Shown here: one piece after another, positions 959 through 11,483 of the stretch
Numbering within the stretch: position 1 is the stretch's first letter
Layout of the letters: the number at the start of each line of letters is the position of its first letter
NCBI RefSeq assembly: GCF_943193195.1
Contig: NZ_CALPDG010000043.1
Span: 1 to 24,000, forward strand
DNA: 24,000 nucleotides
Direction of reading: 5' to 3'
Source of the DNA: Mediterraneibacter agrestimuris
GTDB taxonomy: Bacteria > Bacillota > Clostridia > Lachnospirales > Lachnospiraceae
Made by a program: the position numbers and the translations under genes
The notes under the pieces: model-generated
The model's database searches: none
What the model was told of the DNA's origin: nothing
The model's input: the letters and a program-made list of their open reading frames with translations, nothing else

Positions 959-1063
959 ATGGCAAAAAAGAAAAAAGCTCAGTCAAGTAGTAAGAAAAAA
1001 AGTGGTTGTGTCAATATCTACATTGTAGAAGCCGGATACAACGGAAAAAAGTGGACAATTTAA
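959..1063 (+). CDS. RiPP precursor peptide copy 1 (34 aa): MAKKKKAQSSSKKKSGCVNIYIVEAGYNGKKWTI
   Basis: A strong SD (AGGAAGGAGG, 941-950) precedes the ATG at 959, and the stop is TAA at 1061-1063. It is a paralog of five downstream copies and sits upstream of rSAM/SPASM, protease and transporter genes. Confidence 0.8.
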   Translation: MAKKKKAQSSSKKKSGCVNIYIVEAGYNGKKWTI

Positions 1064-1075
1064 GGAGGAAAAAAG

Positions 1076-1183
1076 ATGTCAGAACAGAGAAAAGATGTAA
1101 AAAAGAGTGGTAAGAAAAAAGGTGGTTGTATCAATATTTATATTGTAGAAGCCGGATACAATGGGAAGAAATGGACAATTTAA
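1076..1183 (+). CDS. RiPP precursor peptide copy 2 (35 aa): MSEQRKDVKKSGKKKGGCINIYIVEAGYNGKKWTI
   Basis: SD AAGGAGG precedes the ATG at 1076, and the stop is TAA at 1181-1183. The C-terminal 19 residues differ from copy 1 by one residue (I/V), plus several synonymous changes. Confidence 0.85.
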   Translation: MSEQRKDVKKSGKKKGGCINIYIVEAGYNGKKWTI

Positions 1184-1196
1184 GGAGGAAAAAGAA

Positions 1197-1304
1197 ATGT
1201 CAGAACAGAGACCAGATGTAAGAAAGAATGGTAAGAAAAAGGGCGGCTGCATCAATATCTTAATTGTGCAGGCAGGCTATGATGGGAAAAAATGGACAAT
1301 TTAA
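1197..1304 (+). CDS. RiPP precursor peptide copy 3 (35 aa): MSEQRPDVRKNGKKKGGCINILIVQAGYDGKKWTI
   Basis: SD AAGGAGG precedes the ATG at 1197, and the stop is TAA at 1302-1304. The 20-aa C-terminal segment is identical to copies 4 and 5 despite synonymous nucleotide differences. Confidence 0.85.
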   Translation: MSEQRPDVRKNGKKKGGCINILIVQAGYDGKKWTI

Positions 1305-1316
1305 GGAGGAAAAAAG

Positions 1317-1421
1317 ATGTCAGAACAAAGAGATGTAAGAAAGAATGGTAAGAAAAAGGGTGGCTGTATCAATATTTTAATTGTGCAAGCAGGTTATGAT
1401 GGAAAAAAATGGACAATTTAA
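1317..1421 (+). CDS. RiPP precursor peptide copy 4 (34 aa): MSEQRDVRKNGKKKGGCINILIVQAGYDGKKWTI
   Basis: SD AAGGAGG precedes the ATG at 1317, and the stop is TAA at 1419-1421. It has one codon fewer in the N-terminal region than copies 3 and 5. Confidence 0.85.
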   Translation: MSEQRDVRKNGKKKGGCINILIVQAGYDGKKWTI

Positions 1422-1434
1422 GGAGGAAAAAGAA

Positions 1435-1542
1435 ATGTCAGAACAGAGAAAAGATGTAAAAAAGAATGGTAAGAAAAAGGGTGGCTGCATCAATATCCTA
1501 ATCGTGCAGGCAGGCTATGATGGGAAAAAATGGACAATTTAG
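1435..1542 (+). CDS. RiPP precursor peptide copy 5 (35 aa): MSEQRKDVKKNGKKKGGCINILIVQAGYDGKKWTI
   Basis: SD AAGGAGG precedes the ATG at 1435, and the stop is TAG at 1540-1542. Confidence 0.85.
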   Translation: MSEQRKDVKKNGKKKGGCINILIVQAGYDGKKWTI

Positions 1543-1555
1543 TGGAGATAAAACC

Positions 1556-1648
1556 ATGAAAGAAATATTGAATAAAAAGAGAGAGATGTTAAAAAAACAT
1601 TCAGGATGTATTAATATTTCTATAGTAAATGCAGGGTTTAAGAAATGA
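1556..1648 (+). CDS. Divergent RiPP precursor copy 6 (30 aa): MKEILNKKREMLKKHSGCINISIVNAGFKK
   Basis: The ATG is at 1556 with a weaker SD (GTGGAGA), and the stop is TGA at 1646-1648. It keeps the G-C-I-N-I-x-I-V-x-A-G-aromatic block but lacks the D/N-G-K-K-W-T-I tail. Confidence 0.65.
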   Translation: MKEILNKKREMLKKHSGCINISIVNAGFKK

Positions 1649-1683
1649 TGAATCAAAGAAAAGTAAGAGGTTGCAAAAAATGA
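1645..1683 (+). other. Possible truncated seventh precursor relic (12 aa): MMNQRKVRGCKK
   Basis: Its ATG overlaps the stop of copy 6 (AAATGATG). It has a basic N-terminus and G-C, then stops two codons after the Cys. No separate SD is present. This call is speculative. Confidence 0.2.
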
Positions 1684-2212: not shown

Positions 2213-3082
2213 ATGCTAGAAATTAGAGGTGTATGTAAGGAATTTGGTGATAAAACAATTTTGAAAGATATTAATCTTACAGTAGAGAATGGGACTATTG
2301 TGGGCTTACTTGGGAAAAATGGGGCGGGAAAATCAACCTTAATTAAGTGTATCAATCAGTTATATAGATTTCAGGGAGAAATAAAAGTAAATGGAATTAA
2401 TTATCGACAGAATTCAGAGAAATATCTAAGAAATGTCGGAGTTTTATTAGAACCAAGCTACTATGAGTATATGAGTGCAATAGAAAACCTGAAATCTTAT
2501 GCTTCACTAAGTGGAGTTTCTTATAAAAATATCGAAAACGAAATGAAGGCTTTACTGGATATTATGGGGTTAGGAGATTCAATAAACAAAAATGTAAGTG
2601 AATTTTCTTTTGGCATGAAACAAAAATTAGGTGTGGCTATGGCTTTGGCAAAAAAGCCAGATGTGTTGGTTTTAGATGAGCCTACAATAGGTGTAGATCC
2701 GAAAGGATTGGTGGCAATGTTTGATATTTTGCGAGATTTGGCTAAGAAGGAGAATACTGCGATCATCTTTTCTAGTAACAACTTGAAAGAAGTCCAGGAT
2801 ATGAGTGATCGAATTTCTTTTTTGAAAAACGGAGAAATAATTCAGACGGTAGATACAGAAAAATTATTAGAAAAAGAGAATTCATATGTAATTACAGTTC
2901 AAAAAGCAATCAAAGAAAAAGAAAGGCTTGAAAGAAAATGTAATTGTGTCGTGAGAGAAAAACAGATTAGTACGGAAAATTATAAGGATATGAATATTGT
3001 ACTAAACTATTTGATCAATACGGATAATCCTATCTTAAATGTTGAACGGGAAAATCACTTTTTGAAAAAGTTTTACGAATAA
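2213..3082 (+). CDS. ABC transporter ATP-binding protein
   Basis: Walker A is GKNGAGKST, the ABC signature-like motif is FSFGMKQKLG, and Walker B is VLVLDEPT. SD AAGGGGG precedes the ATG. Confidence 0.9.
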   Translation: MLEIRGVCKEFGDKTILKDINLTVENGTIVGLLGKNGAGKSTLIKCINQLYRFQGEIKVNGINYRQNSEKYLRNVGVLLEPSYYEYMSAIENLKSYASLSGVSYKNIENEMKALLDIMGLGDSINKNVSEFSFGMKQKLGVAMALAKKPDVLVLDEPTIGVDPKGLVAMFDILRDLAKKENTAIIFSSNNLKEVQDMSDRISFLKNGEIIQTVDTEKLLEKENSYVITVQKAIKEKERLERKCNCVVREKQISTENYKDMNIVLNYLINTDNPILNVERENHFLKKFYE

Positions 3083-3103
3083 AGAGGGAGGGAATTGGAG
3101 TTT

Positions 3104-3862
3104 ATGATTGGTTTGGTAAAGTTAGAATTAAAGAAAATATTTTCTAAAAAGGATATCATGATTATTAGTTCAATTTTGATTTTATCCCCGTTAGTGTTCG
3201 GGATTTGTATGGTAAATCGGATTGCAGGTCTGAATTTTAACGGTCAAATTACGATAGATGCCTATGGCATTATGATTTGGAGTTTTCTAAAGTATTTGTT
3301 TGTGTTGTATTTGATGCCAATATATTTAGTATGTTGTTTTGTTGGTAAGGAGATTGAGAGCAGAAGTATAAACATAATGTTATCAAATTACGATAGAAAA
3401 AAAGTTTTCGCGGCGAAGATGATGACATATTTGATAACAATTATAATCTTTTTTGTGCTTTTTCATATAGTAAGTATGTTGACATTTTCAGGTTTGATAC
3501 ACAATACAGAATTTGCTCTCGCAGGTTCGGGAAATACTTTAACAAGAAATTTTTTTCTGTATTTGTTTCAGTGGTTAGAACTTTTATTTGTAGCTATTAT
3601 TTCATATCTTTTATGTTGTGCGATAAAGGGAAATGCCGTATTAGTATTGGGAATAGGAGTTATTATTCTTCAGAAAATAGTAGTAAATATTGAAGGTGTA
3701 AGGCGTTTTTTACCATTCTATATTTCAGATTTTAATTACTATAGTATGATACCAGATGGCGTGCTAATGAATACTAATATAATATCATGCATTATTTATA
3801 CAATTATAATTATGGCAACTTTCTGCATCGCATTAAAAATGTGGAGCAGAAAAGACTTTTAA
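3104..3862 (+). CDS. ABC-2 type transporter permease (partner of the 2213-3082 ATPase)
   Basis: This is a polytopic membrane protein (about 6 TM) directly after the ATPase. The ORF track starts at TTG 3095, but the ATG at 3104 sits about 11 nt after GGGAGGG and is preferred. The family assignment comes from context and topology only. Confidence 0.7.
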   Translation: MIGLVKLELKKIFSKKDIMIISSILILSPLVFGICMVNRIAGLNFNGQITIDAYGIMIWSFLKYLFVLYLMPIYLVCCFVGKEIESRSINIMLSNYDRKKVFAAKMMTYLITIIIFFVLFHIVSMLTFSGLIHNTEFALAGSGNTLTRNFFLYLFQWLELLFVAIISYLLCCAIKGNAVLVLGIGVIILQKIVVNIEGVRRFLPFYISDFNYYSMIPDGVLMNTNIISCIIYTIIIMATFCIALKMWSRKDF

Positions 3863-3878
3863 AAAGGAGAATAACAAT

Positions 3879-5090
3879 ATGTATCAAATGTGTAAGGCGG
3901 TAGCATTCATTGAACTGGATTCAGAAAGATATTTGGCGGATTTTGAAAGTGGTGCACTTATTAAAATGAGTGATAAAAGAGAAAAAATTTTAGGAGAGAA
4001 TATTCAGGGAAAATATTATGAAAAAGGAGACTTTTCCGAAGATCCTCTGTTATTTGCTGAGTTAGAAGATGGTGGATATTTTCAAGAAGTTATCCAACCA
4101 TTGTCTACGGCTTATGTTCATGTAACAAACATTTGCAATTTAAATTGTATTGGCTGCTATTCTTATGATAGAACCAGAAATTGTACAGATAAATTGACAT
4201 TAGAAAATTACTCCTATATTTTATCTGAATTGGCGAAAAATGGTGTGGAAACAGTGACCATTTCTGGTGGGGAACCATTAATTCGAAAGGATATTATTGA
4301 GATATGTAGATATGCAAAAGATAAAGCAAAAATTTCTGTGTTAAATCTGATAACGAATGGAACTTTGTATAATGAAGAGCAGATAAAACAGCTTAAAAAG
4401 TATGTAGATGCTTTAGCAGTATCTATTGACGGATATAGTACGGAAAACTCTCAATTTTTGCGAGATGCCGGGAGTTTTCAGAAAGCAGTTGAATTTGTAC
4501 GGAGGGTCAAGGAATTAGGATTGCCAGTTTCGATATTGCCTACATTACATAAGAAGAATATCAAGGCTATTGGAGAATACATGAAATTAAGTCGTGAACT
4601 TCAAGTGCCAATTAGCTTTAGTTTGCTTACATGCTCAGGGGAATTGAAAGATTTTATACCTACAGATCAAGATTTGAGTTTTCTTGCTGAGTATTTGTGT
4701 GAATATATGAAAAATGGTGTTGTTCCTTTACAGGATTATTCGGAACTTGAGGCTCGAAAGAGCTGTGGTGCAGGAAGTAGCATTATTAGTGTAACGTCGG
4801 AAGGAGACATATATCCATGTCATATGATGCATGATACAAATACAGTTATGGGGAATATTTTAGAAAGACCGTTAAAAGAAATTCTATATAATGCAAAACC
4901 GCTTCCAAACGTAGAAGATATTGAAAAGTGTCAAAACTGTGAGATGAAATATCTATGTGGAGGGGGATGTAAGGCAAGAGCATTGTTGATTAATGGCAGT
5001 TGGGAAAAACCTGATCCATATTGCAGTCTAAACATGGACTTTTACAAAAGATTCTTAAAGGAGAAAAGGAATAGTGAAAAAAGAAAATAG
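3879..5090 (+). CDS. Radical SAM enzyme with C-terminal SPASM domain (RiPP maturase candidate)
   Basis: The CNLNCIGC motif gives CxxxCxxC (C86, C90, C93; nt 4134-4157), with SGGEPL downstream. The full SPASM pattern is present: C-x12-G-x4-C (CGAGSSIISVTSEGDIYPC), then C-x2-C-x5-C-x3-C (CQNCEMKYLCGGGC) and a later DPYC. An extension of about 85 aa precedes the rSAM core and has the size of an RRE/PqqD-like peptide-binding domain. Confidence 0.9.
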   Translation: MYQMCKAVAFIELDSERYLADFESGALIKMSDKREKILGENIQGKYYEKGDFSEDPLLFAELEDGGYFQEVIQPLSTAYVHVTNICNLNCIGCYSYDRTRNCTDKLTLENYSYILSELAKNGVETVTISGGEPLIRKDIIEICRYAKDKAKISVLNLITNGTLYNEEQIKQLKKYVDALAVSIDGYSTENSQFLRDAGSFQKAVEFVRRVKELGLPVSILPTLHKKNIKAIGEYMKLSRELQVPISFSLLTCSGELKDFIPTDQDLSFLAEYLCEYMKNGVVPLQDYSELEARKSCGAGSSIISVTSEGDIYPCHMMHDTNTVMGNILERPLKEILYNAKPLPNVEDIEKCQNCEMKYLCGGGCKARALLINGSWEKPDPYCSLNMDFYKRFLKEKRNSEKRK

Positions 5091-5730
5091 AGTTGAACAA
5101 TATTTAATGGCGGGAATTCATATTGCTATATATTGCATTTTGCCTATGATTGGATTTATGACTTGGGTTCTTTGTGTACCAATTCTATTCTATGGTGGGA
5201 TGATGACCAGTGTTGATGATGCTCAAGGATTGGGACAAACATTACTTGTTTTTTCAGCTCCAATGCTACTATTTTTTGCAGTGATACCGGTTCTTTTTCA
5301 ACTGAGAAGGGTTTCAGTAAGGGAATTAGGGATAAAGTTCAGCTATGATAAAAAAAATATAGTAGTTTTTGGAATTAACTGTTTTATTGTAATAATACTC
5401 CTTGGAAGACTGGTACTGAATTTTAATTCTCCATTGGATGCACTTCCTATAGTATTTCAATTATGTGTGATAGGTATTTCTGAAGAAATCCTTTGTAGAG
5501 GTATTATATATCATGAAATTGAGAGCGGATTTGGAAATAAGTGGTTTGCAGTAATTCTTAGTTCTATGATTTTTGCGTTCTTATTTCATTCAGGGGATAC
5601 AGATTTAGCCAATTTGGCAATTAGATTTCCTCTTGGATTAGCACTTGCACTGGTGCGTTGCTATACTGGAAATGTATATAGTAGCATTATGATGCATATT
5701 TGGTATAATTCCTGGATGTTTATACTGTAA
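5074..5730 (+). CDS. CPBP-family (CAAX/Abi) intramembrane glutamic protease
   Basis: Motifs are EEILCRG (EExxxR), FAFLFH (FxxxH) and HIWYN (HxxxN) in a polytopic membrane protein. The GTG start overlaps the rSAM gene by 17 nt, which suggests translational coupling. Confidence 0.8.
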   Translation: MKKENRVEQYLMAGIHIAIYCILPMIGFMTWVLCVPILFYGGMMTSVDDAQGLGQTLLVFSAPMLLFFAVIPVLFQLRRVSVRELGIKFSYDKKNIVVFGINCFIVIILLGRLVLNFNSPLDALPIVFQLCVIGISEEILCRGIIYHEIESGFGNKWFAVILSSMIFAFLFHSGDTDLANLAIRFPLGLALALVRCYTGNVYSSIMMHIWYNSWMFIL

Positions 5731-5744
5731 GGAGGAAAGAGCCT

Positions 5745-7451
5745 GTGAGGATACTATATCAATATCTATTTAAATTCAAAACATTAAGTGGAGCAAGAAT
5801 TTTAACAAATGTTTGTAAGGCGGCTTGTACAGTATATTTGTCTATTATTTTAGGCAATGTATTAGATGGCTTGGCAAATTCAGATGTATCGATGTTGACT
5901 GCTGCTGTCCTCAGATGCGTAGTATTGCTATTCTTCTTTGTTGTAGTATCAGGGCTGGATATATGGGTAACAACTTTACAAACAAAGAAAATATTAAATT
6001 ATATAAAACATGATATTTTTTCTAAAATAATTTCTGGAAGTATCGAGAAGTATAGAAGCATGCATAGTGGAAAATATCTATCTATTTTAAATAATGATAT
6101 TTCTACCATAAATGAAGAATTTATCACTAATTTTTTTGATTTAATTTTTCAGATTTTGTCATTTGCAATTTCTTTAGTAATAATGCTACGAATTAATATA
6201 GTAGTGACAGGCATTATTTTGGGAATATCAATGTTAAGCATGTATGTTGTATCAAAGATTTCAGATAAGCTGATGAGACAGCAAGTTAAATTATCTGAAA
6301 GCCTTGAAAATGTGACAAAATTAGCTGCAGATATTTTCTCAGGGATACTGGTTATAAAAAATTATAATTTAACTAGTAAAATAGAGGAAATGTATTATAG
6401 TAATGATCAAGCAGTAGAGGATAATAGAGAAAAGTATTCTATTATGATAGGTGTGATAAATATATTGATGGTTTGTTTTAGTATGTTAATTTATTTGACA
6501 ATCGTTGTATTTTGTGCCACTTCAGTGATGAATGCCACATTATCTGCTGGAACAGCTTTGATTATTCTGCAGTTAAGTAGTAATTTGACCGAACCGATAA
6601 ATGAAATTATTTCCATTGGAAGTGCAATGAATTCTGTAAAAGGAATTGGAGAGAAAATACAGAAAATATATATGGAAAATGGTGATGAAACCGGAACCAT
6701 ACATAAAGATGTATTTAATAAATCAATTAATATTCATGGTTTGGAATTTGGGTATAATCCGGAGGATAATCTAGTTTTAAATGGTGTCGATTTAGAATTT
6801 TGTAAAGGGAAAAAATATGCGATTGTTGGGGAAAGTGGTTCAGGAAAAACTACGCTGATTAAATTGCTTTTAAAGTATTATAACAAGTATAGTGGAAAAA
6901 TTTTGATTGATGAAACAGATATTCGTACTATTGATATTAACGATTATTGTAGTCTTATTTCTTCAATGGAGCAAGATACTTTTATTTTTGATGAAACTTT
7001 GTGGGACAATATTTGTCTGTATTCAGATTATACAGAACAAGAGGTAAAAAAGGCGGTATTACAGGCTGGTTTAACATCTGTAGTAGAACGGCTTCCAGAC
7101 GGTCTTCAAACAATGTTAGGTGAAGGAGGTTCAAATCTTTCAGGAGGAGAATGCCAACGTGTTGCTTTTGCAAGACTTTTATTAAAAAAGACGCCAATAC
7201 TGCTTTTGGATGAGGCTACAGCAAATTTAGATAATGAAATGGCAGTAAAGATTGAGAGACTAGTTTTAGAAAATAAAAACCTAACATTGGTTTCTATTAC
7301 ACATAAATTAATTAAACAAGTTCTGCAGCAGTACGATGAGATTATTGTTTTGAAAAAAGGGATTGTGATCGAAAAAGGAAGTTTCAATCAGTTAATGCAA
7401 AAACAAGGATACTTTTTTAATTTGTACAATGTGCAGACAATGGAGGCATAG
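5745..7451 (+). CDS. ABC exporter, fused 6-TM permease plus ATPase; no N-terminal C39 peptidase domain
   Basis: The N-terminal half is hydrophobic. The C-terminal half carries GESGSGKTT (Walker A), LSGGECQRVAFAR (signature) and LLLDEATANLD (Walker B). The protein is 568 aa and starts directly with TM segments. Confidence 0.9.
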   Translation: MRILYQYLFKFKTLSGARILTNVCKAACTVYLSIILGNVLDGLANSDVSMLTAAVLRCVVLLFFFVVVSGLDIWVTTLQTKKILNYIKHDIFSKIISGSIEKYRSMHSGKYLSILNNDISTINEEFITNFFDLIFQILSFAISLVIMLRINIVVTGIILGISMLSMYVVSKISDKLMRQQVKLSESLENVTKLAADIFSGILVIKNYNLTSKIEEMYYSNDQAVEDNREKYSIMIGVINILMVCFSMLIYLTIVVFCATSVMNATLSAGTALIILQLSSNLTEPINEIISIGSAMNSVKGIGEKIQKIYMENGDETGTIHKDVFNKSINIHGLEFGYNPEDNLVLNGVDLEFCKGKKYAIVGESGSGKTTLIKLLLKYYNKYSGKILIDETDIRTIDINDYCSLISSMEQDTFIFDETLWDNICLYSDYTEQEVKKAVLQAGLTSVVERLPDGLQTMLGEGGSNLSGGECQRVAFARLLLKKTPILLLDEATANLDNEMAVKIERLVLENKNLTLVSITHKLIKQVLQQYDEIIVLKKGIVIEKGSFNQLMQKQGYFFNLYNVQTMEA

Positions 7452-7465
7452 ACGGAGGAGCGCAT

Positions 7466-8083
7466 ATGTATCACATAATAACAATTAAATTTTTAGAAAG
7501 TTTTTTTGGAAAAACTAATATGAGAAATAACAGATTATGGGAAAAATATGTGGAATATTTTTTACCATTAATTCTGAATACGATGGTGGCTTCTGGAATT
7601 GGTCATACATTTGAAATAGAAATAGAAATGATTATCTTTAGTATATTTTATACGGTTCTTAGGACGAGTAATGGCGGAAATTATTATAAAATAAATGTGA
7701 AAAATACTCTATTTTTCTGGAGTTCTGCGGTAGTAGTACTTAAAAGCATACCACATATAATAGCAGCTGAATATGGAAAGATTTTGCTTTTAACATTTAT
7801 TTTGGGAAGTTTAGCAATTGTATTTATTTTTTTGCCAGTATCAATTCGGCAAAGAGAATTTCCAAAGAATGTACGAAAGACAATTTTAAAAATGAGTTAT
7901 GCGGTAATATTGTTAGAAAGCCTTCCCTTACTGATTGGAACATTTTTTTGTATAAATAGATTTATTGTAGCAGCTGTGTCAGGTGTTTTGCTACAGAGTA
8001 TTTCGCTGATTTGGGTTCGGGAAAGAGAATGGAAAATGACTACTTTATATAATAAAACAGAAAGGTGTGGGATATGTGAATAA
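7466..8083 (+). CDS. Polytopic membrane protein with AgrB-like layout but lacking the catalytic His/Cys pair
   Basis: LRTSNGGNYYKINVKNT aligns by eye with the AgrB LR..GG.HA......C block, with Y replacing H and no Cys. FLPVSIRQREFPKNVRKTILKMSY resembles the basic cytoplasmic loop of AgrB ([21 protein letters not shown]). The family call is tentative. Confidence 0.35.
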   Translation: MYHIITIKFLESFFGKTNMRNNRLWEKYVEYFLPLILNTMVASGIGHTFEIEIEMIIFSIFYTVLRTSNGGNYYKINVKNTLFFWSSAVVVLKSIPHIIAAEYGKILLLTFILGSLAIVFIFLPVSIRQREFPKNVRKTILKMSYAVILLESLPLLIGTFFCINRFIVAAVSGVLLQSISLIWVREREWKMTTLYNKTERCGICE

Positions 8084-8392
8084 GATGCCGATTGTCATGT
8101 TAGATGATAAATTTATTACAAATTCAAGGAAACTAAAAAAATATTTTGGTTTCAGATGTAGTTTTTGAATTAAGATAGAAGTAACACATAGGTAGAAAAG
8201 GGAGAGATGAAATATTATAAGTTTTAAGATTTAGAAAGCGGTGAATCTATTAGGTTTGCTGCTTTTTATTTTAGAAATAGATTAGAAATACATAATATGA
8301 AAAAAGTATAAAAAAGTATAAAAGTATAAATAATGAAACCCAAATCCAACTCTCTTCGTATTGATAAAAAGTAGGTGGATTGGATTTGGACA

Positions 8393-8940
8393 ATGGATGA
8401 AAAGATTTTAATAAAGAAACTACAGAGAAAAGATTATTGATATGTACAGTACCTATATTACATACATTGTCTGGGGGTTATTGCATAAAAAAGGAACACG
8501 GGAAGACGTTGAGGGAGGTGGTAGCAGATACTTTTATTTCGCTATGGATGACAGCAGAACGTGTTGATTATAAGCATTATAGTAGTATTCGGGGATACAT
8601 AGGTACTATTGCGAGAAATAAAGCCAAAGATTGGTTGAGAACTCATCGAGGTGTAGATTTAGGCTTAGATGAGGATATCGTAAGTGCTGATCAGAATTTA
8701 GAATTATTGGTTTTACAAAAGGAACAACAAAAAATAGTCCAAAACACCTTGAAGGAGTTGAAGCAAGAGGATAGAAGCATTTTTACTAAGTATTATTATG
8801 AATGTATGAAAATCGAAGAAATAGCGGAAGATCTACAGATGAATCCACAAACAATTAAAACCAGACTACGACGGGGACGGGAAACTTTGAAACAAATTCT
8901 TCTGAAAGAGGGGTATAGGAGCAGTGAAATTGAGAATTAG
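8393..8940 (+). pseudogene. ECF-type sigma-70 family sigma factor, apparently disrupted by two frame changes near the 5' end
   Basis: MDEKILIKKLQRKDY-stop occupies one frame (8393-8440). REKIIDMYSTYITYIVWGLLHKKGTREDVE occupies a second frame (about 8424-8513). EVVADTFISLW...IARNKAKDWLR...region 4 (EIAEDLQMNPQTIKTRLRRGRETLK) occupies the third frame (8515-8940). Joined together, these read like a normal clostridial ECF sigma factor. Confidence 0.6.
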
Positions 8941-9646
8941 TGAAATGATGGATCATTCCAGCGAAATTTTGGAACATGATATGGCTTGTGACTTTATGGT
9001 GGATGAAGATCGTATAAAGCAAATTGTATTTTATAAAATTGGCTGTTCTAGAGTGAAAAATGGCAGAAGGAGTAAAAAAAGGTATGCAGCTATATTTGTT
9101 GCCACATTAGGGATTGGAGGAATGACCGCATGGGCACACAGTATTCTTAAATCTGCCGGAGAAATTAACGGAAATAAAAATGAAGTATTGGAAAGCCAAG
9201 AAGGAATCTCCATATCAGAAAATATGGAAGATCAGGAAGAAATTTTTGAACCGGATACGGCAACAGAGTGGATAACTGACGAAAATTTATGCAGAGATGG
9301 AGTACCGATTGCAAAATATATTATAGAATTACCAATACAAAAAGATGGAACTGTGCCGGAATGTTATTATTATGGCAAGACGAAAGAAACCTGTACACCG
9401 AGTACAAATTATAGAATCGTCTCTCATAAAAAACGTGAACCGGGAATCCCCAAAAAGGTTCCCGGTCTTGTTCTATTTTTTCGTATGTTCTTTTATAATA
9501 GGAGGAATCTGCCCCATCATATTGTCGATATCTTCAAACATAGCGCTTTTCGTGGTTCCCAGCTTGCTTGCTTTGCTTATATGTTTCACTACTTCCTGAT
9601 ATCCGTTTCTCAGCTGTTCAAAGAATCCGCAAAGCATTTGGAGTGA
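8924..9646 (+). CDS. Anti-sigma-factor-like single-pass membrane protein; the 3' end is unreliable
   Basis: The start overlaps the sigma gene stop. It has a short cytoplasmic N-terminus, one TM segment (YAAIFVATLGIGGMTAWAHSIL) and an extracytoplasmic tail. The frame has no stop before the hairpin at 9439-9466 and runs antisense into the convergent MCP gene, so the last 60 or so codons are very unlikely to be real. Confidence 0.4.
   Translation: MKLRISEMMDHSSEILEHDMACDFMVDEDRIKQIVFYKIGCSRVKNGRRSKKRYAAIFVATLGIGGMTAWAHSILKSAGEINGNKNEVLESQEGISISENMEDQEEIFEPDTATEWITDENLCRDGVPIAKYIIELPIQKDGTVPECYYYGKTKETCTPSTNYRIVSHKKREPGIPKKVPGLVLFFRMFFYNRRNLPHHIVDIFKHSAFRGSQLACFAYMFHYFLISVSQLFKESAKHLE
9439..9480. 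terminator. Bidirectional intrinsic terminator between convergent genes
   Basis: ACCGGGAA (9439-9446) pairs with TTCCCGGT (9459-9466) around a 12-nt loop. A T-run follows on the plus strand (ctattttttcg), and an A-run on the left (cataaaaaacg) gives a T-run on the minus strand. Confidence 0.7.
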
Positions 9647-10417
9647 CATCTTTGACTCATCGAGCACTTTGGAGATCTCAGACTGCACATCCTTGGCGCC
9701 TTCTGCCGATTGTGTGATTTTATCAAACATATCGTAGGTTTCGTTTACCTTAAACAGACTTTCTCCCAAAGCTTTCTGCGACTCTGCAATGCTGTTGTTA
9801 AGCCGCTCTGTTCCTGCCTCCACATCATGGATGCCGGAGTCCACTTCGCCGGTCAAATTCTTGATTTGATCCGCAAGTTTTTTTACTTCCACTGCGACTA
9901 CTGCAAATCCCTTTCCCTGCTGTCCGGCTCTTGCAGCTTCTATAGAAGCATTCAGTGCAAGGAGGTTCGTCTGTTCGGCAATGGCTACAATGCTGCTGGT
10001 ACAACGCTTAATTTTCTCCACCGACTGCTGCAGAGACTCAAATGTATTTTCCATTTCACCGAAGTGGGCTTCTACTTGAATGGAGCTGGTTCTCAGTTCC
10101 TCAACCCCCCTTTGGGCGTGGTCAACCGATTGGTCAATATTCTGTTTGACAGCGGCAAATTCACCGGACACCTGTTCAATATTTGAAAAATTCAGGTCGA
10201 ACTGCTGTAATTTATCCTGAAAGTTTTCTGCTTCGTTAAGTATTTTTCCGAAGGAACTTCCTATATTGCCCAATTCCTGCAGGGATTCCACCTCTTTTTG
10301 CACCAGCTCGGTACGGTAGTCCTTCAAACTTTCCATTACATGGAGTACCGGATACAGATCGTTTGTGTCTTCAGGCATCTTTTTTGTATCTTTCTTATCT
10401 CTATTCCAAAACATCAT
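9473..10417 (-). CDS. Soluble methyl-accepting chemotaxis protein (signaling domain only, no TM segments)
   Basis: AEQTNLLALNASIEAARAGQQGKGFAVVAVEVKKLADQ is the highly conserved MCP hairpin-tip motif. The ORF track starts at TTG 10435. I prefer the ATG at 10417, preceded by AAGGGGGA, which also removes the overlap with the upstream gene. Confidence 0.85.
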   Translation of the reverse strand: MMFWNRDKKDTKKMPEDTNDLYPVLHVMESLKDYRTELVQKEVESLQELGNIGSSFGKILNEAENFQDKLQQFDLNFSNIEQVSGEFAAVKQNIDQSVDHAQRGVEELRTSSIQVEAHFGEMENTFESLQQSVEKIKRCTSSIVAIAEQTNLLALNASIEAARAGQQGKGFAVVAVEVKKLADQIKNLTGEVDSGIHDVEAGTERLNNSIAESQKALGESLFKVNETYDMFDKITQSAEGAKDVQSEISKVLDESKMSLQMLCGFFEQLRNGYQEVVKHISKASKLGTTKSAMFEDIDNMMGQIPPIIKEHTKK

Positions 10418-10427
10418 GAATCCCCCT

Positions 10428-11483
10428 TTACTCAAACACTACGCAGGTCATGGACTGGTTCACGAAGCGGTTATTATAGTGTTCTCCATATCCCACAAAG
10501 CCTGCATGTGATCCCAACAAACTCATATCGTTCAAATACTCCTGCATATAGTGGTTGTCGGTAAACAGTAAATATCTGAACAGGCAGTTTACGGAAAATA
10601 CTGCGGAAATCCGGGAGAAATCCTGTTGTATCTGACGAATCGTATTCCTTACAGTCTCTTTATAATCGCCTAATTCCAAAAGAACCAATACATCCGAATC
10701 ATTTACCTGCCGAAAGCATGTCAAAGCATCTCCTTTTACTTCCTTGATGGAAACAATGCAGGTGTCGTCTCCGTTAATTTTACCGAAAGGATTCTTGAAG
10801 GTCTGTGTTGTGATTTCTTTCTCTGTTATATGTAGAATGTCCTGATAAACCCGCTTTGCCGGATATCCGTTTAATGCCCCCATAACATAATTTGCCTTAT
10901 CTGTCCGAGATGCGATAAACCGATATTGGTCTAATGGATGGTAGATATTCTCTTTATATGCTTTTACCTTTCCGTTTTGGTTCTTCACTATTGCATAGGC
11001 AACAGCGTCCTCATAGACTCTGCCGTTTGCTGACACTTTTCCTGCATCGCCGGTTCCTCCCACTAGGGAAATATTTTTTCGCTTTAACACGGAATAAATC
11101 GTGGTAAGTACACAAGCATCGTTTCCTGAGCATAGGTCGATACATATCGTATCGTTCTGGGAGCCGTTCACGCGTTTTACGTCCTCCTCAAGGCGCTGGA
11201 TATATTTTACAGGCATAACAGATACTTCCTCTAATACGTTTGCAGCTGCGGCAACGCCGTCATAAAATGCAACAACGCCGACACCTTTCTCAACTACTTT
11301 AGTGTCGTAACTCATACCGATACATCCAATACTTGGCACTTCGGGAAAAAGCTTCTCCAATTCTACTACGTGTTTCTCAAACTGATTACTATTAGAAAAC
11401 AGCATAATAAATTGAGGTCTGCTTAATCCACGAACCGCGTCTGTTAAATTTCCCTGCTGGCTCATTCCGAAAAACTGTTTCAT
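10428..11483 (-). CDS. FIST-domain sensor protein (FIST_N plus FIST_C like)
   Basis: The N-terminal pattern PQFIMLFSNSNQFEKHVVELEKLFPEVPSIGCIGMSYDT...GVGVVAF matches the FIST layout (previous-state/Fxx block, then a G-C-x-x-x-G block). It lies immediately upstream of an MCP, which is the usual FIST context. The call is made by eye only. Confidence 0.55.
   Translation of the reverse strand: MKQFFGMSQQGNLTDAVRGLSRPQFIMLFSNSNQFEKHVVELEKLFPEVPSIGCIGMSYDTKVVEKGVGVVAFYDGVAAAANVLEEVSVMPVKYIQRLEEDVKRVNGSQNDTICIDLCSGNDACVLTTIYSVLKRKNISLVGGTGDAGKVSANGRVYEDAVAYAIVKNQNGKVKAYKENIYHPLDQYRFIASRTDKANYVMGALNGYPAKRVYQDILHITEKEITTQTFKNPFGKINGDDTCIVSIKEVKGDALTCFRQVNDSDVLVLLELGDYKETVRNTIRQIQQDFSRISAVFSVNCLFRYLLFTDNHYMQEYLNDMSLLGSHAGFVGYGEHYNNRFVNQSMTCVVFE

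Follow-up and report, generated by a model that had tools for sequence, protein, structure and literature searches.

Tandem single-cysteine precursor peptides of a probable radical SAM-dependent RiPP cluster in Mediterraneibacter agrestimuris

Introduction

Ruminococcin C (RumC1-5), a group of peptides made on ribosomes and modified after translation (RiPPs) from Ruminococcus (Mediterraneibacter) gnavus, is encoded by tandem paralogous precursor genes, matured by SPASM radical S-adenosylmethionine (SAM) enzymes and has a double-hairpin structure with four sactionine bridges (PMC9389541). Here, we describe a locus from Mediterraneibacter agrestimuris, located in a stretch of 24,000 nucleotides (contig NZ_CALPDG010000043.1 of assembly GCF_943193195.1, positions 1 to 24,000, forward strand), which is hereafter called the window. 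It contains an array of six small open reading frames (ORFs) at positions 959-1648, which very likely represent real, translated precursors of a radical-SAM-dependent RiPP cluster. The ruminococcin C locus is the closest described system in lifestyle and genetic layout, being multi-copy, tandem and from a gut member of the Lachnospiraceae. It differs from the locus described here, in which the peptides are only 30-35 residues long with a single cysteine and an unrelated sequence, and in which one maturase is accompanied by CPBP and AgrB-like genes.

The architecture of the modifying enzyme, with an RRE, a radical SAM and a SPASM domain, is the same as in the sactipeptide and ranthipeptide systems, such as CteB/thermocellin of the SCIFF family, StsB/streptosactin and PapB. 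An invariant precursor cysteine and the presence of a protease and ABC (ATP-binding cassette) transporters are further features in common with these systems. However, their precursors contain several cysteines rather than one, the maturase of the window scores below the family cut-offs, and a thioether is here a prediction. The six-cysteine motif within about 45 residues that characterizes SCIFF is absent from the single-cysteine precursors of 30-35 residues. The streptococcal radical SAM RiPPs (RaS-RiPPs; streptide with StrB/SuiB and tryglysin with WgkB) resemble the locus in their short precursors with lysine and tryptophan near the C-terminus and in the adjoining quorum-sensing system, which is here found in relatives. 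The differences are that the motif is G-K-K-W and not W-G-K or K-x-x-x-W, that the type B precursor described below lacks tryptophan, and that the adjacent system is of the agr type instead of Rgg/SHP.

Two other pathways have a similar gene content. As in the agr pathway (AgrD, AgrB, MroQ), there is an AgrB-family protein, a CPBP protease and precursors of about 35 residues with one cysteine, but the catalytic His/Cys dyad is lost, the precursors show no match to AgrD and a radical SAM enzyme is central. The epipeptide cluster yydFGHIJ likewise combines a radical SAM enzyme, a membrane protease, an ABC transporter and a small peptide rich in isoleucine and valine, but differs in the precursor sequence and in having neither the multi-copy array nor the invariant cysteine and tryptophan. 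Membership tests were negative for SCIFF, PapB, StsB, WgkB, ruminococcin C and the agr autoinducing peptide (AIP) system. Judged from its genes, the locus nevertheless appears to work like a RaS-RiPP, sactipeptide or ranthipeptide cluster.

Results

A tandem array of six precursor genes

All six ORFs of the array are located on the plus strand, start with ATG and encode 30-35 residues. Each of them is preceded by its own Shine-Dalgarno sequence (AAGGAGG, AGGAGG, GGAGG or GGAG) at a distance of 6-9 nt, and neighbouring ORFs are separated by spacers of 12-13 nt. Five copies belong to one type, called type A, and the last copy to a second type, called type B; all six are predicted to be transcribed together. 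The type A precursors are copy 1 (959-1063, MAKKKKAQSSSKKKSGCVNIYIVEAGYNGKKWTI), which has an orthologue in the related contigs L087-L096, copy 2 (1076-1183, MSEQRKDVKKSGKKKGGCINIYIVEAGYNGKKWTI), copy 3 (1197-1304, MSEQRPDVRKNGKKKGGCINILIVQAGYDGKKWTI), copy 4 (1317-1421, MSEQRDVRKNGKKKGGCINILIVQAGYDGKKWTI), which has one leader codon fewer, and copy 5 (1435-1542, MSEQRKDVKKNGKKKGGCINILIVQAGYDGKKWTI). The type B precursor, copy 6 (1556-1648, MKEILNKKREMLKKHSGCINISIVNAGFKK), is shorter than those of type A and contains the segment ...GCINISIVNAGFKK.

The N-terminal part of each precursor consists of 16-17 residues and is rich in lysine, with a net charge of about +5. In type A it is followed by a core of 18 residues, with the pattern C-[IV]-N-[IV]-x-[IV]-V-x-A-G-Y-x-G-K-K-W-[TS]-I. 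Scans of the precursor peptides against Pfam and NCBIfam gave no match. The original prediction had pointed out that none of the precursors appears in the ORF track, which is caused solely by the length cut-off: with a minimum of 20 residues all six are listed, some with spurious upstream extensions.

Upstream of the array, the comparison of the window with the related contig L082 revealed a sole well-conserved stretch, the block GTCAAATAATAACGGAAAGCGGACAAAAGAAA at 870-903 on the plus strand, which is a candidate promoter or regulator site. A scan for consensus promoters performed no better than on shuffled sequences.

Purifying selection on the encoded peptides

Copies 3, 4 and 5 all encode the same segment of 20 residues, GGCINILIVQAGYDGKKWTI, and yet their DNA differs at eight sites over the shared 20 codons. 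All eight differences are synonymous and all are transitions; seven are located at third codon positions and the remaining one is the first-position change TTA/CTA. The probability that eight of eight random changes would be synonymous is approximately 1.5e-4 with transition bias and 4e-6 in a simple model. Pairwise counts were obtained from a codon alignment by the Nei-Gojobori method, starting at the cysteine. Copies 3 and 4 differed by five synonymous changes, copies 3 and 5 by two, and copies 4 and 5 by seven, with no non-synonymous change in any of these pairs. Copies 1 and 2 differed by six synonymous changes and one non-synonymous change (V/I), their leaders being much more divergent than the parts from the cysteine onward.

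The same pattern was observed when 16 distinct DNA versions of the type A core, from the window and its relatives, were pooled: of 23 sites at each codon position, 7 were variable at the first, 4 at the second and 21 at the third position. Variation in the DNA of type B is also mostly at third positions, and its amino-acid changes are conservative (I/V, F/Y). Thus, these data support the view that the array encodes translated peptides under purifying selection, as read from the substitution pattern, rather than a non-coding repeat.

Most of what the original prediction had stated about the repeat units was reproduced by these counts. This includes the identical segment of copies 3-5 with its listed codon pairs (GGC/GGT, TGC/TGT, ATC/ATT, TTA/CTA, CAG/CAA and GGG/GGA, all of which are present), the single V/I change with several synonymous changes between copies 1 and 2, the existence of three sequence types and the purifying selection, which is seen as a third-position excess both within the array and across relatives. 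An equal density of substitutions over the codon positions, named beforehand as an observation that would undermine the claim, was looked for and not seen, nor was a disruption of most copies in related strains: in contigs of the Illumina type, the fully covered copies are intact.

Conservation of the precursors in related lineages

Ten places in contigs from the same species or close relatives were read, and the array contained either five or four type A copies plus one of type B, so that its copy number, which had been proposed for comparison, ranges from 4+1 to 5+1. All fully covered copies were undisrupted; in L088, one copy holds a run of N. The few amino-acid changes among these contigs are confined to the leader and to the variable position of Y-x-G. 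The peptide of copy 5 (P0121), searched with an in-frame extension of 53 residues, is also on record on 29 human-gut metagenome contigs.

Peptides of the precursor type were found upstream of the same operon in lineages in which the maturase is 82, 76, 66, 61, 58, 57 and 47% identical to that of the window. In the 82% lineage (P0122, L082), the 18-residue core CINILIVQAGYDGKKWTI is identical while the leader differs, so that the sequence types predate the split of the species. Among 27 distinct type A peptides, the core always has 18 residues. Counting from the cysteine as position 0, C0, V6, G9, G12 and W15 are invariant, G-1, N2, A8, Y10 and I17 are nearly invariant, and positions 4, 7 and 11 are highly variable. 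Each peptide contains one cysteine, which is invariant in the 27 type A peptides and in every type B peptide.

Copy 6 had been described as a divergent copy without the tail. The comparison shows that it is no decayed copy, but a second conserved precursor type, ending in GCINIS[IV][VI]NAG[YF]K(K), that closes the array in four lineages (L082, L083, L085 and L097) and is also last in all same-species contigs that reach far enough (L087-L096). The 12-codon relic claimed at 1645-1683 (MMNQRKVRGCKK, plus strand) did not stand up. Of 1000 dinucleotide shuffles, 513 aligned locally with the units at least as well as its best alignment did, its cysteine codon is a phenylalanine codon in L087, its ATG is absent from L082, and it is not conserved as an ORF; the sequence is most likely an A-rich spacer. 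The dismissal of the minus-strand ORF at 1498-1752 as noise was correct, as L087, a near-identical strain, has a stop within this ORF, and in L082, L083 and L085 it is split into pieces.

The layout of the whole operon recurs in about ten lineages of gut Lachnospiraceae, and a reduced form is present in Staphylococcus and Mammaliicoccus. Homologous peptides adjoin homologous enzymes in at least ten lineages, and a precursor co-occurs with the radical SAM/SPASM gene over maturase identities from 99% to 40%, including Staphylococcus caeli and Mammaliicoccus. The Staphylococcus and Mammaliicoccus loci retain only the precursor, the radical SAM gene, the CPBP gene, the gene for a small membrane protein and the ABC pair. 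These five elements, which are kept in L100 as well, are taken as the core set. The precursor of the two genera, MLFFT(D/N)LFRDKRGC(G/A)SGGFY(V/L)CIS(A/V)GRQVGKWS(I/V), aligns without gaps with ...IVQAGYNGKKWTI. No recognisable homologous precursor was found with the distant maturase homologues of at most 48% identity (L002 and L003 from metagenome-assembled genomes of Clostridium, and L005 from Enterorhabdus).

Disrupted precursors were observed in two places. In the nanopore contig L081 (a 'polypolish' contig, 4317-4668), two copies are frameshifted at poly-A runs; the copies are intact in its Illumina twin, L082. In L098 (2663-2880), where the maturase is 59% identical, the single precursor appears to be truly decayed, by a Cys to Gly change, a frameshift and the loss of the stop codon, and the biosynthetic genes have been kept.

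The precursor family is rare, with 11 clusters (50% identity, E <= 1e-3) among 1.84 billion proteins. No description of the family was found in the full-text literature searched by sequence motif or by concept; it may have been catalogued earlier.

The operon and its predicted maturase

The label of precursor, given by the original prediction to the repeat units, is borne out by the genes that follow the array on the plus strand. The ORF at 3879-5090 encodes a peptide maturase with RRE-like, radical SAM and SPASM domains (PF04055, PF13353, PF13186). Its CxxxCxxC motif (C86/C90/C93; PF04055, E = 1e-27) is invariant in 19 homologues, as are the seven cysteines of the SPASM domain (C296, C314, C351, C354, C360, C364 and C382; PF13186). 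The AlphaFold model has an overall confidence (pLDDT) of 82.7, and residues 8-64 form three strands followed by three helices, with pLDDT values of 81-93. This N-terminus is predicted to be an RRE/PqqD-like peptide-recognition domain. CteB is the best match in the PDB by both sequence and fold (fold E = 6e-19), and the full-length fold alignment takes in the N-terminal domain of CteB; the next closest matches are PqqE, SuiB, TigE and SkfB. WP_251391974.1 from M. agrestimuris, whose only annotation is 'radical SAM/SPASM domain-containing protein', belongs to the 90% cluster of the maturase.

Between the array and the maturase gene are three genes. A polytopic membrane protein of 152 residues (1744-2202) had no significant match in Pfam, and orthologues of 141-152 residues occupy the same position in L081-L086, L097, L100 and L101; the orthologue has 147 residues in L098 and 169, as called, in L087. 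The next two genes, for an ABC transporter ATPase (2213-3082; PF00005, E = 1.5e-28) and a membrane protein of approximately 252 residues (3095-3862; no Pfam match), are conserved in synteny. The latter is probably an ABC permease, and the two proteins probably form an ABC pair of the immunity type.

Downstream of the maturase gene, a CPBP (Rce1-like) intramembrane glutamic protease is encoded at 5074-5730 (PF02517, E = 1e-15). Its motifs EExxxR, FxxxH and HxxxN are intact (SEEILCR, FLFH and HIWYN), and by its likeness to MroQ it is a candidate leader peptidase, or alternatively an immunity protein. It is followed by a fused ABC exporter of 568 residues (5745-7451), containing both transmembrane and nucleotide-binding domains (PF00664 and PF00005). 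This exporter has no C39 peptidase domain, and the NCBIfam models for bacteriocin exporters match it only past the peptidase domain.

An AgrB-like membrane protein is encoded at 7466-8083 (PF04647, 27.7 bits against a gathering threshold of 23); the match to this family is weak or absent in some of its orthologues. According to Qiu et al. 2005 (cited in PMC10885120), the catalytic residues of AgrB in S. aureus are H77 and C84. The four orthologues from within the cluster that were aligned all have tyrosine in place of the histidine and asparagine or serine in place of the cysteine, whereas the canonical AgrB proteins of L081 and L085, from the neighbouring agr loci, keep H...C. The protein of the window reads GGNYYK...KNT, compared with the canonical GGxHA...(R/K)C. 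Most Lachnospiraceae with the cluster have kept the gene; it is missing in L100, the lineage with 47% maturase identity, and in the clusters of Staphylococcus and Mammaliicoccus. The protein may be a pseudo-enzyme or a scaffold; a sequence search of the PDB for a solved AgrB structure returned none.

A conserved small ORF at 8067-8168 (ATG at 8076, plus strand; MPIVMLDDKFITNSRKLKKYFGFRCSF) ends in KKYFGFRCSF, and its orthologues in L081/L082, L083, L085 and L097 have the common C-terminus KKY[FL]G.[KR]C.[FLM]. This ORF was considered as a possible AgrD following the in-cluster AgrB-like gene and rejected, as it is not AgrD-like. Further downstream, from 8375, are a gene for an extracytoplasmic function (ECF) sigma factor and a putative anti-sigma gene.

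A conserved hairpin closes the array

A stem-loop with 15 base pairs and a loop of 7 nt is located on the plus strand at 1693-1729, where 1693-1707 pairs with 1715-1729. Its minimum free energy is -30 kcal/mol (z = -5.3). Across five loci, compensatory changes were observed in 8 of the 15 pairs and no pair was broken. There is no U-tract on its 3' side; the Shine-Dalgarno sequence GAAAGG follows and then an ATG at 1744, suggesting that the next gene starts at 1744 and not at 1693. An Rfam scan of 500-2300, including the hairpin, gave no relevant match. Comparable elements that stabilise or attenuate transcripts occur in bacteriocin operons. By analogy, we infer that the hairpin may stabilise the transcript or attenuate or partly end it, which would raise the level of precursor mRNA relative to that of the enzyme.

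Surroundings of the cluster

In comparison with L081 and L083, the ECF sigma gene (8375-8940) is split over three frames, with frameshifts near 8437 and 8490, and is either a pseudogene or affected by sequence errors. Two genes on the minus strand, convergent to the cluster and probably without a connection to it, encode a soluble protein with an MCP signal domain (9473-10435) and a FIST-domain protein (10428-11483). The window begins, upstream of the array, with the C-terminal end of a transposase (1-153), which is ISL3-like as read from the translation, and a fragment of a DDE_Tnp_1 transposase is located at 16829-17371. In L087-L090, three tyrosine recombinase genes are found upstream of the array instead. 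The transposase fragments and the recombinases of the sister strains indicate that the cluster is located in a mobile or rearranged region.

A second RiPP locus, of the lanthipeptide type, is present at 18433-23606. It has four tandem precursors (18433-18606, 18621-18797, 18810-18998 and one within 19003-19323, the last of which matches PF16934), a class II LanM (19528-22569) on their 3' side and an FMN reductase (22878-23606) after the LanM. The four precursors have the common leader G K (S/D/P) F E E L ... Q G x G. Two of the cores end in ...SIKHC and ...SALKC, which we take to be cytolysin-like, and the other two are free of cysteine.

Discussion

A proposed maturation pathway

Based on the conservation of the precursors next to the radical SAM/SPASM gene, we propose that the RRE-like N-terminal domain of the maturase (3879-5090) would bind the peptide and that its radical SAM/SPASM core would install a cross-link in the peptide core. 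Tentatively, this cross-link could be an intramolecular thioether from the single invariant cysteine. The thioether is favoured because no other reactive residue is common to types A and B and the variant from Roseburia, and because the nearest structure, CteB, is that of a thioether-forming enzyme. The A-G-Y-x-G turn might let the strand that bears the cysteine fold back onto the K-K-W-T-I strand. The CPBP protease would then trim the leader or, alternatively, protect the producer, the 568-residue ABC protein would export the product, and the ATPase/permease pair together with the small membrane protein would give self-protection.

For the product, a cationic bacteriocin or a signal is the most likely identity. 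In relatives it is probably under the control of an adjacent agr-type quorum-sensing system, as suggested by the agr-type genes that adjoin the cluster in several of them. A full agrBDCA set is present in L081/L082 (50-3685) and in L085 (11495-14907), and partial sets in L097 (9654-10338) and L098-L100. Taken together, these neighbouring genes encode AgrB, an AgrD of 35-40 residues with a QP(E/K)xP tail, a LytTR regulator and a HATPase_c_5 kinase.

Several observations weigh against this pathway. With all curated maturase models of NCBIfam, the enzyme stays well under the cut-off, namely 147 bits against 650 for WgkB (NF050035), 123 against 625 for StsB (NF045574), 103 against 340 for PapB (NF047865) and 88 against 425 for SCIFF (TIGR03974), so that its reaction is not transferable by homology. 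A single cysteine is atypical for the known sactipeptides and ranthipeptides. Tryptophan is missing in type B, in the Roseburia variant (L001) and in a few other copies, and the Staphylococcus variant carries two cysteines; thus, only G-C...A/V-G is universal and no single pair of residues is. Finally, the window itself contains no agr system, and its ECF sigma gene is frameshifted.

Alternative explanations

It is conceivable, though unlikely, that the radical SAM enzyme forms a carbon-carbon cross-link at K-K-W, similar to the Lys-Trp bonds of streptide and tryglysin, and that the cysteine strand is a recognition sequence. The top NCBIfam match of the maturase is indeed the Trp-Lys cross-linking WgkB and SuiB is among its best fold matches, but at 147 bits WgkB is a long way from its cut-off of 650 and CteB outranks SuiB. 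Similarly, the 27 type A cores show little or no variation at W15 and K13/K14, and the variants of Staphylococcus and Mammaliicoccus still have KW[ST][IV], but tryptophan is lacking from type B, from L001 and from a number of copies (GKVTI, GEKVSI), although these are conserved next to this very enzyme. An isoleucine-tryptophan cross-link may also be considered, as the peptides end in W-T-I. An epimerase of the epipeptide type (YydG/EpeE), which would convert the alternating Ile/Val of C-I-N-I-x-I-V to D-forms without any cross-link, is improbable. Such an activity would agree with the alternation of beta-branched residues in the core and with a gene set (radical SAM enzyme, membrane protease, ABC transporter) that resembles yydFGHIJ, and epipeptide clusters have been described as common in the Firmicutes of the human microbiome (PMC9389541). 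However, EpeE is a distant fold match (E of about 6e-9, rank 43), behind CteB, PqqE, SuiB and SkfB, and the invariant cysteine and tryptophan would be left unexplained.

The presence of an AgrB-family protein and a CPBP protease in one operon recalls the maturation of AIPs, which uses AgrB plus MroQ (PMC10885120). If the peptides were AgrD-like autoinducer precursors, the AgrB-like protein would remove 13 C-terminal residues and close a C-I-N-I-Y thiolactone, and the MroQ-like CPBP would remove the leader; each precursor does have a single cysteine, followed by four residues and then a possible tail of 13. This is highly improbable, since the AgrB-like protein lacks the catalytic His/Cys in all four aligned orthologues and its gene is missing in three loci with precursor and radical SAM genes (L100, L004 and L101). 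Moreover, the precursors have no AgrD match in Pfam and their tail is basic, without the acidic, proline-containing motif (QP(E/K)xP) of the neighbouring canonical AgrDs. Small, cationic, tryptophan-containing peptides in multiple copies, next to genes for ABC export and of the immunity type, could also be unmodified, leaderless bacteriocins, presumably comparable to the aureocin-A70 multi-peptide set, or small membrane peptides, with the radical SAM enzyme acting on something else. The chance of this is very slight: the linkage of precursor and radical SAM gene holds across families while other genes come and go, the enzyme bears a predicted peptide-binding RRE-like domain, and the only other conserved candidate substrate, the ORF at 8067-8168, is missing in the Staphylococcus-type loci. 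As for a non-coding repeat with accidental ORFs, the array is A-rich and does score as a tandem repeat (period 121 nt, 4.6 copies and 86% matches by Tandem Repeats Finder). This explanation is effectively refuted by the codon-position data with their third-position pattern, by the Shine-Dalgarno sequence in every unit and by the frame and exact core length that are held in 27 distinct variants.

Beyond the proposed thioether pathway, the locus might represent a new RiPP class, which we consider distinctly unlikely at present. In such a class, a radical SAM/SPASM enzyme, a dead AgrB paralogue serving as scaffold or chaperone and an MroQ-like CPBP protease would convert the two co-evolving precursor types, A and B, to a beta-hairpin that is stapled by a novel cross-link, for example from the cysteine to the invariant tryptophan region. 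If its production were controlled by agr quorum sensing, the system would be an evolutionary hybrid of the autoinducing-peptide and RaS-RiPP pathways.

Implications

We regard the locus as a real but fairly ordinary natural-product locus, and as a solid finding of moderate interest. It adds a rare and unannotated precursor family to the radical SAM RiPPs of human-gut Lachnospiraceae, both Mediterraneibacter-like and Roseburia-like. Neither Pfam nor NCBIfam contains a model for these precursors, and default ORF calling misses them on account of their length. As a substrate they are well defined, with an 18-residue core that has five invariant and three hypervariable positions, and are thereby suited for finding the chemistry of this clade of maturases. 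The locus also raises the questions of why a dead AgrB paralogue is retained and why the shorter type B precursor is kept last in the array where it is present. Should the product prove to be a bacteriocin or a signal, it could have a part in the competition among gut commensals.

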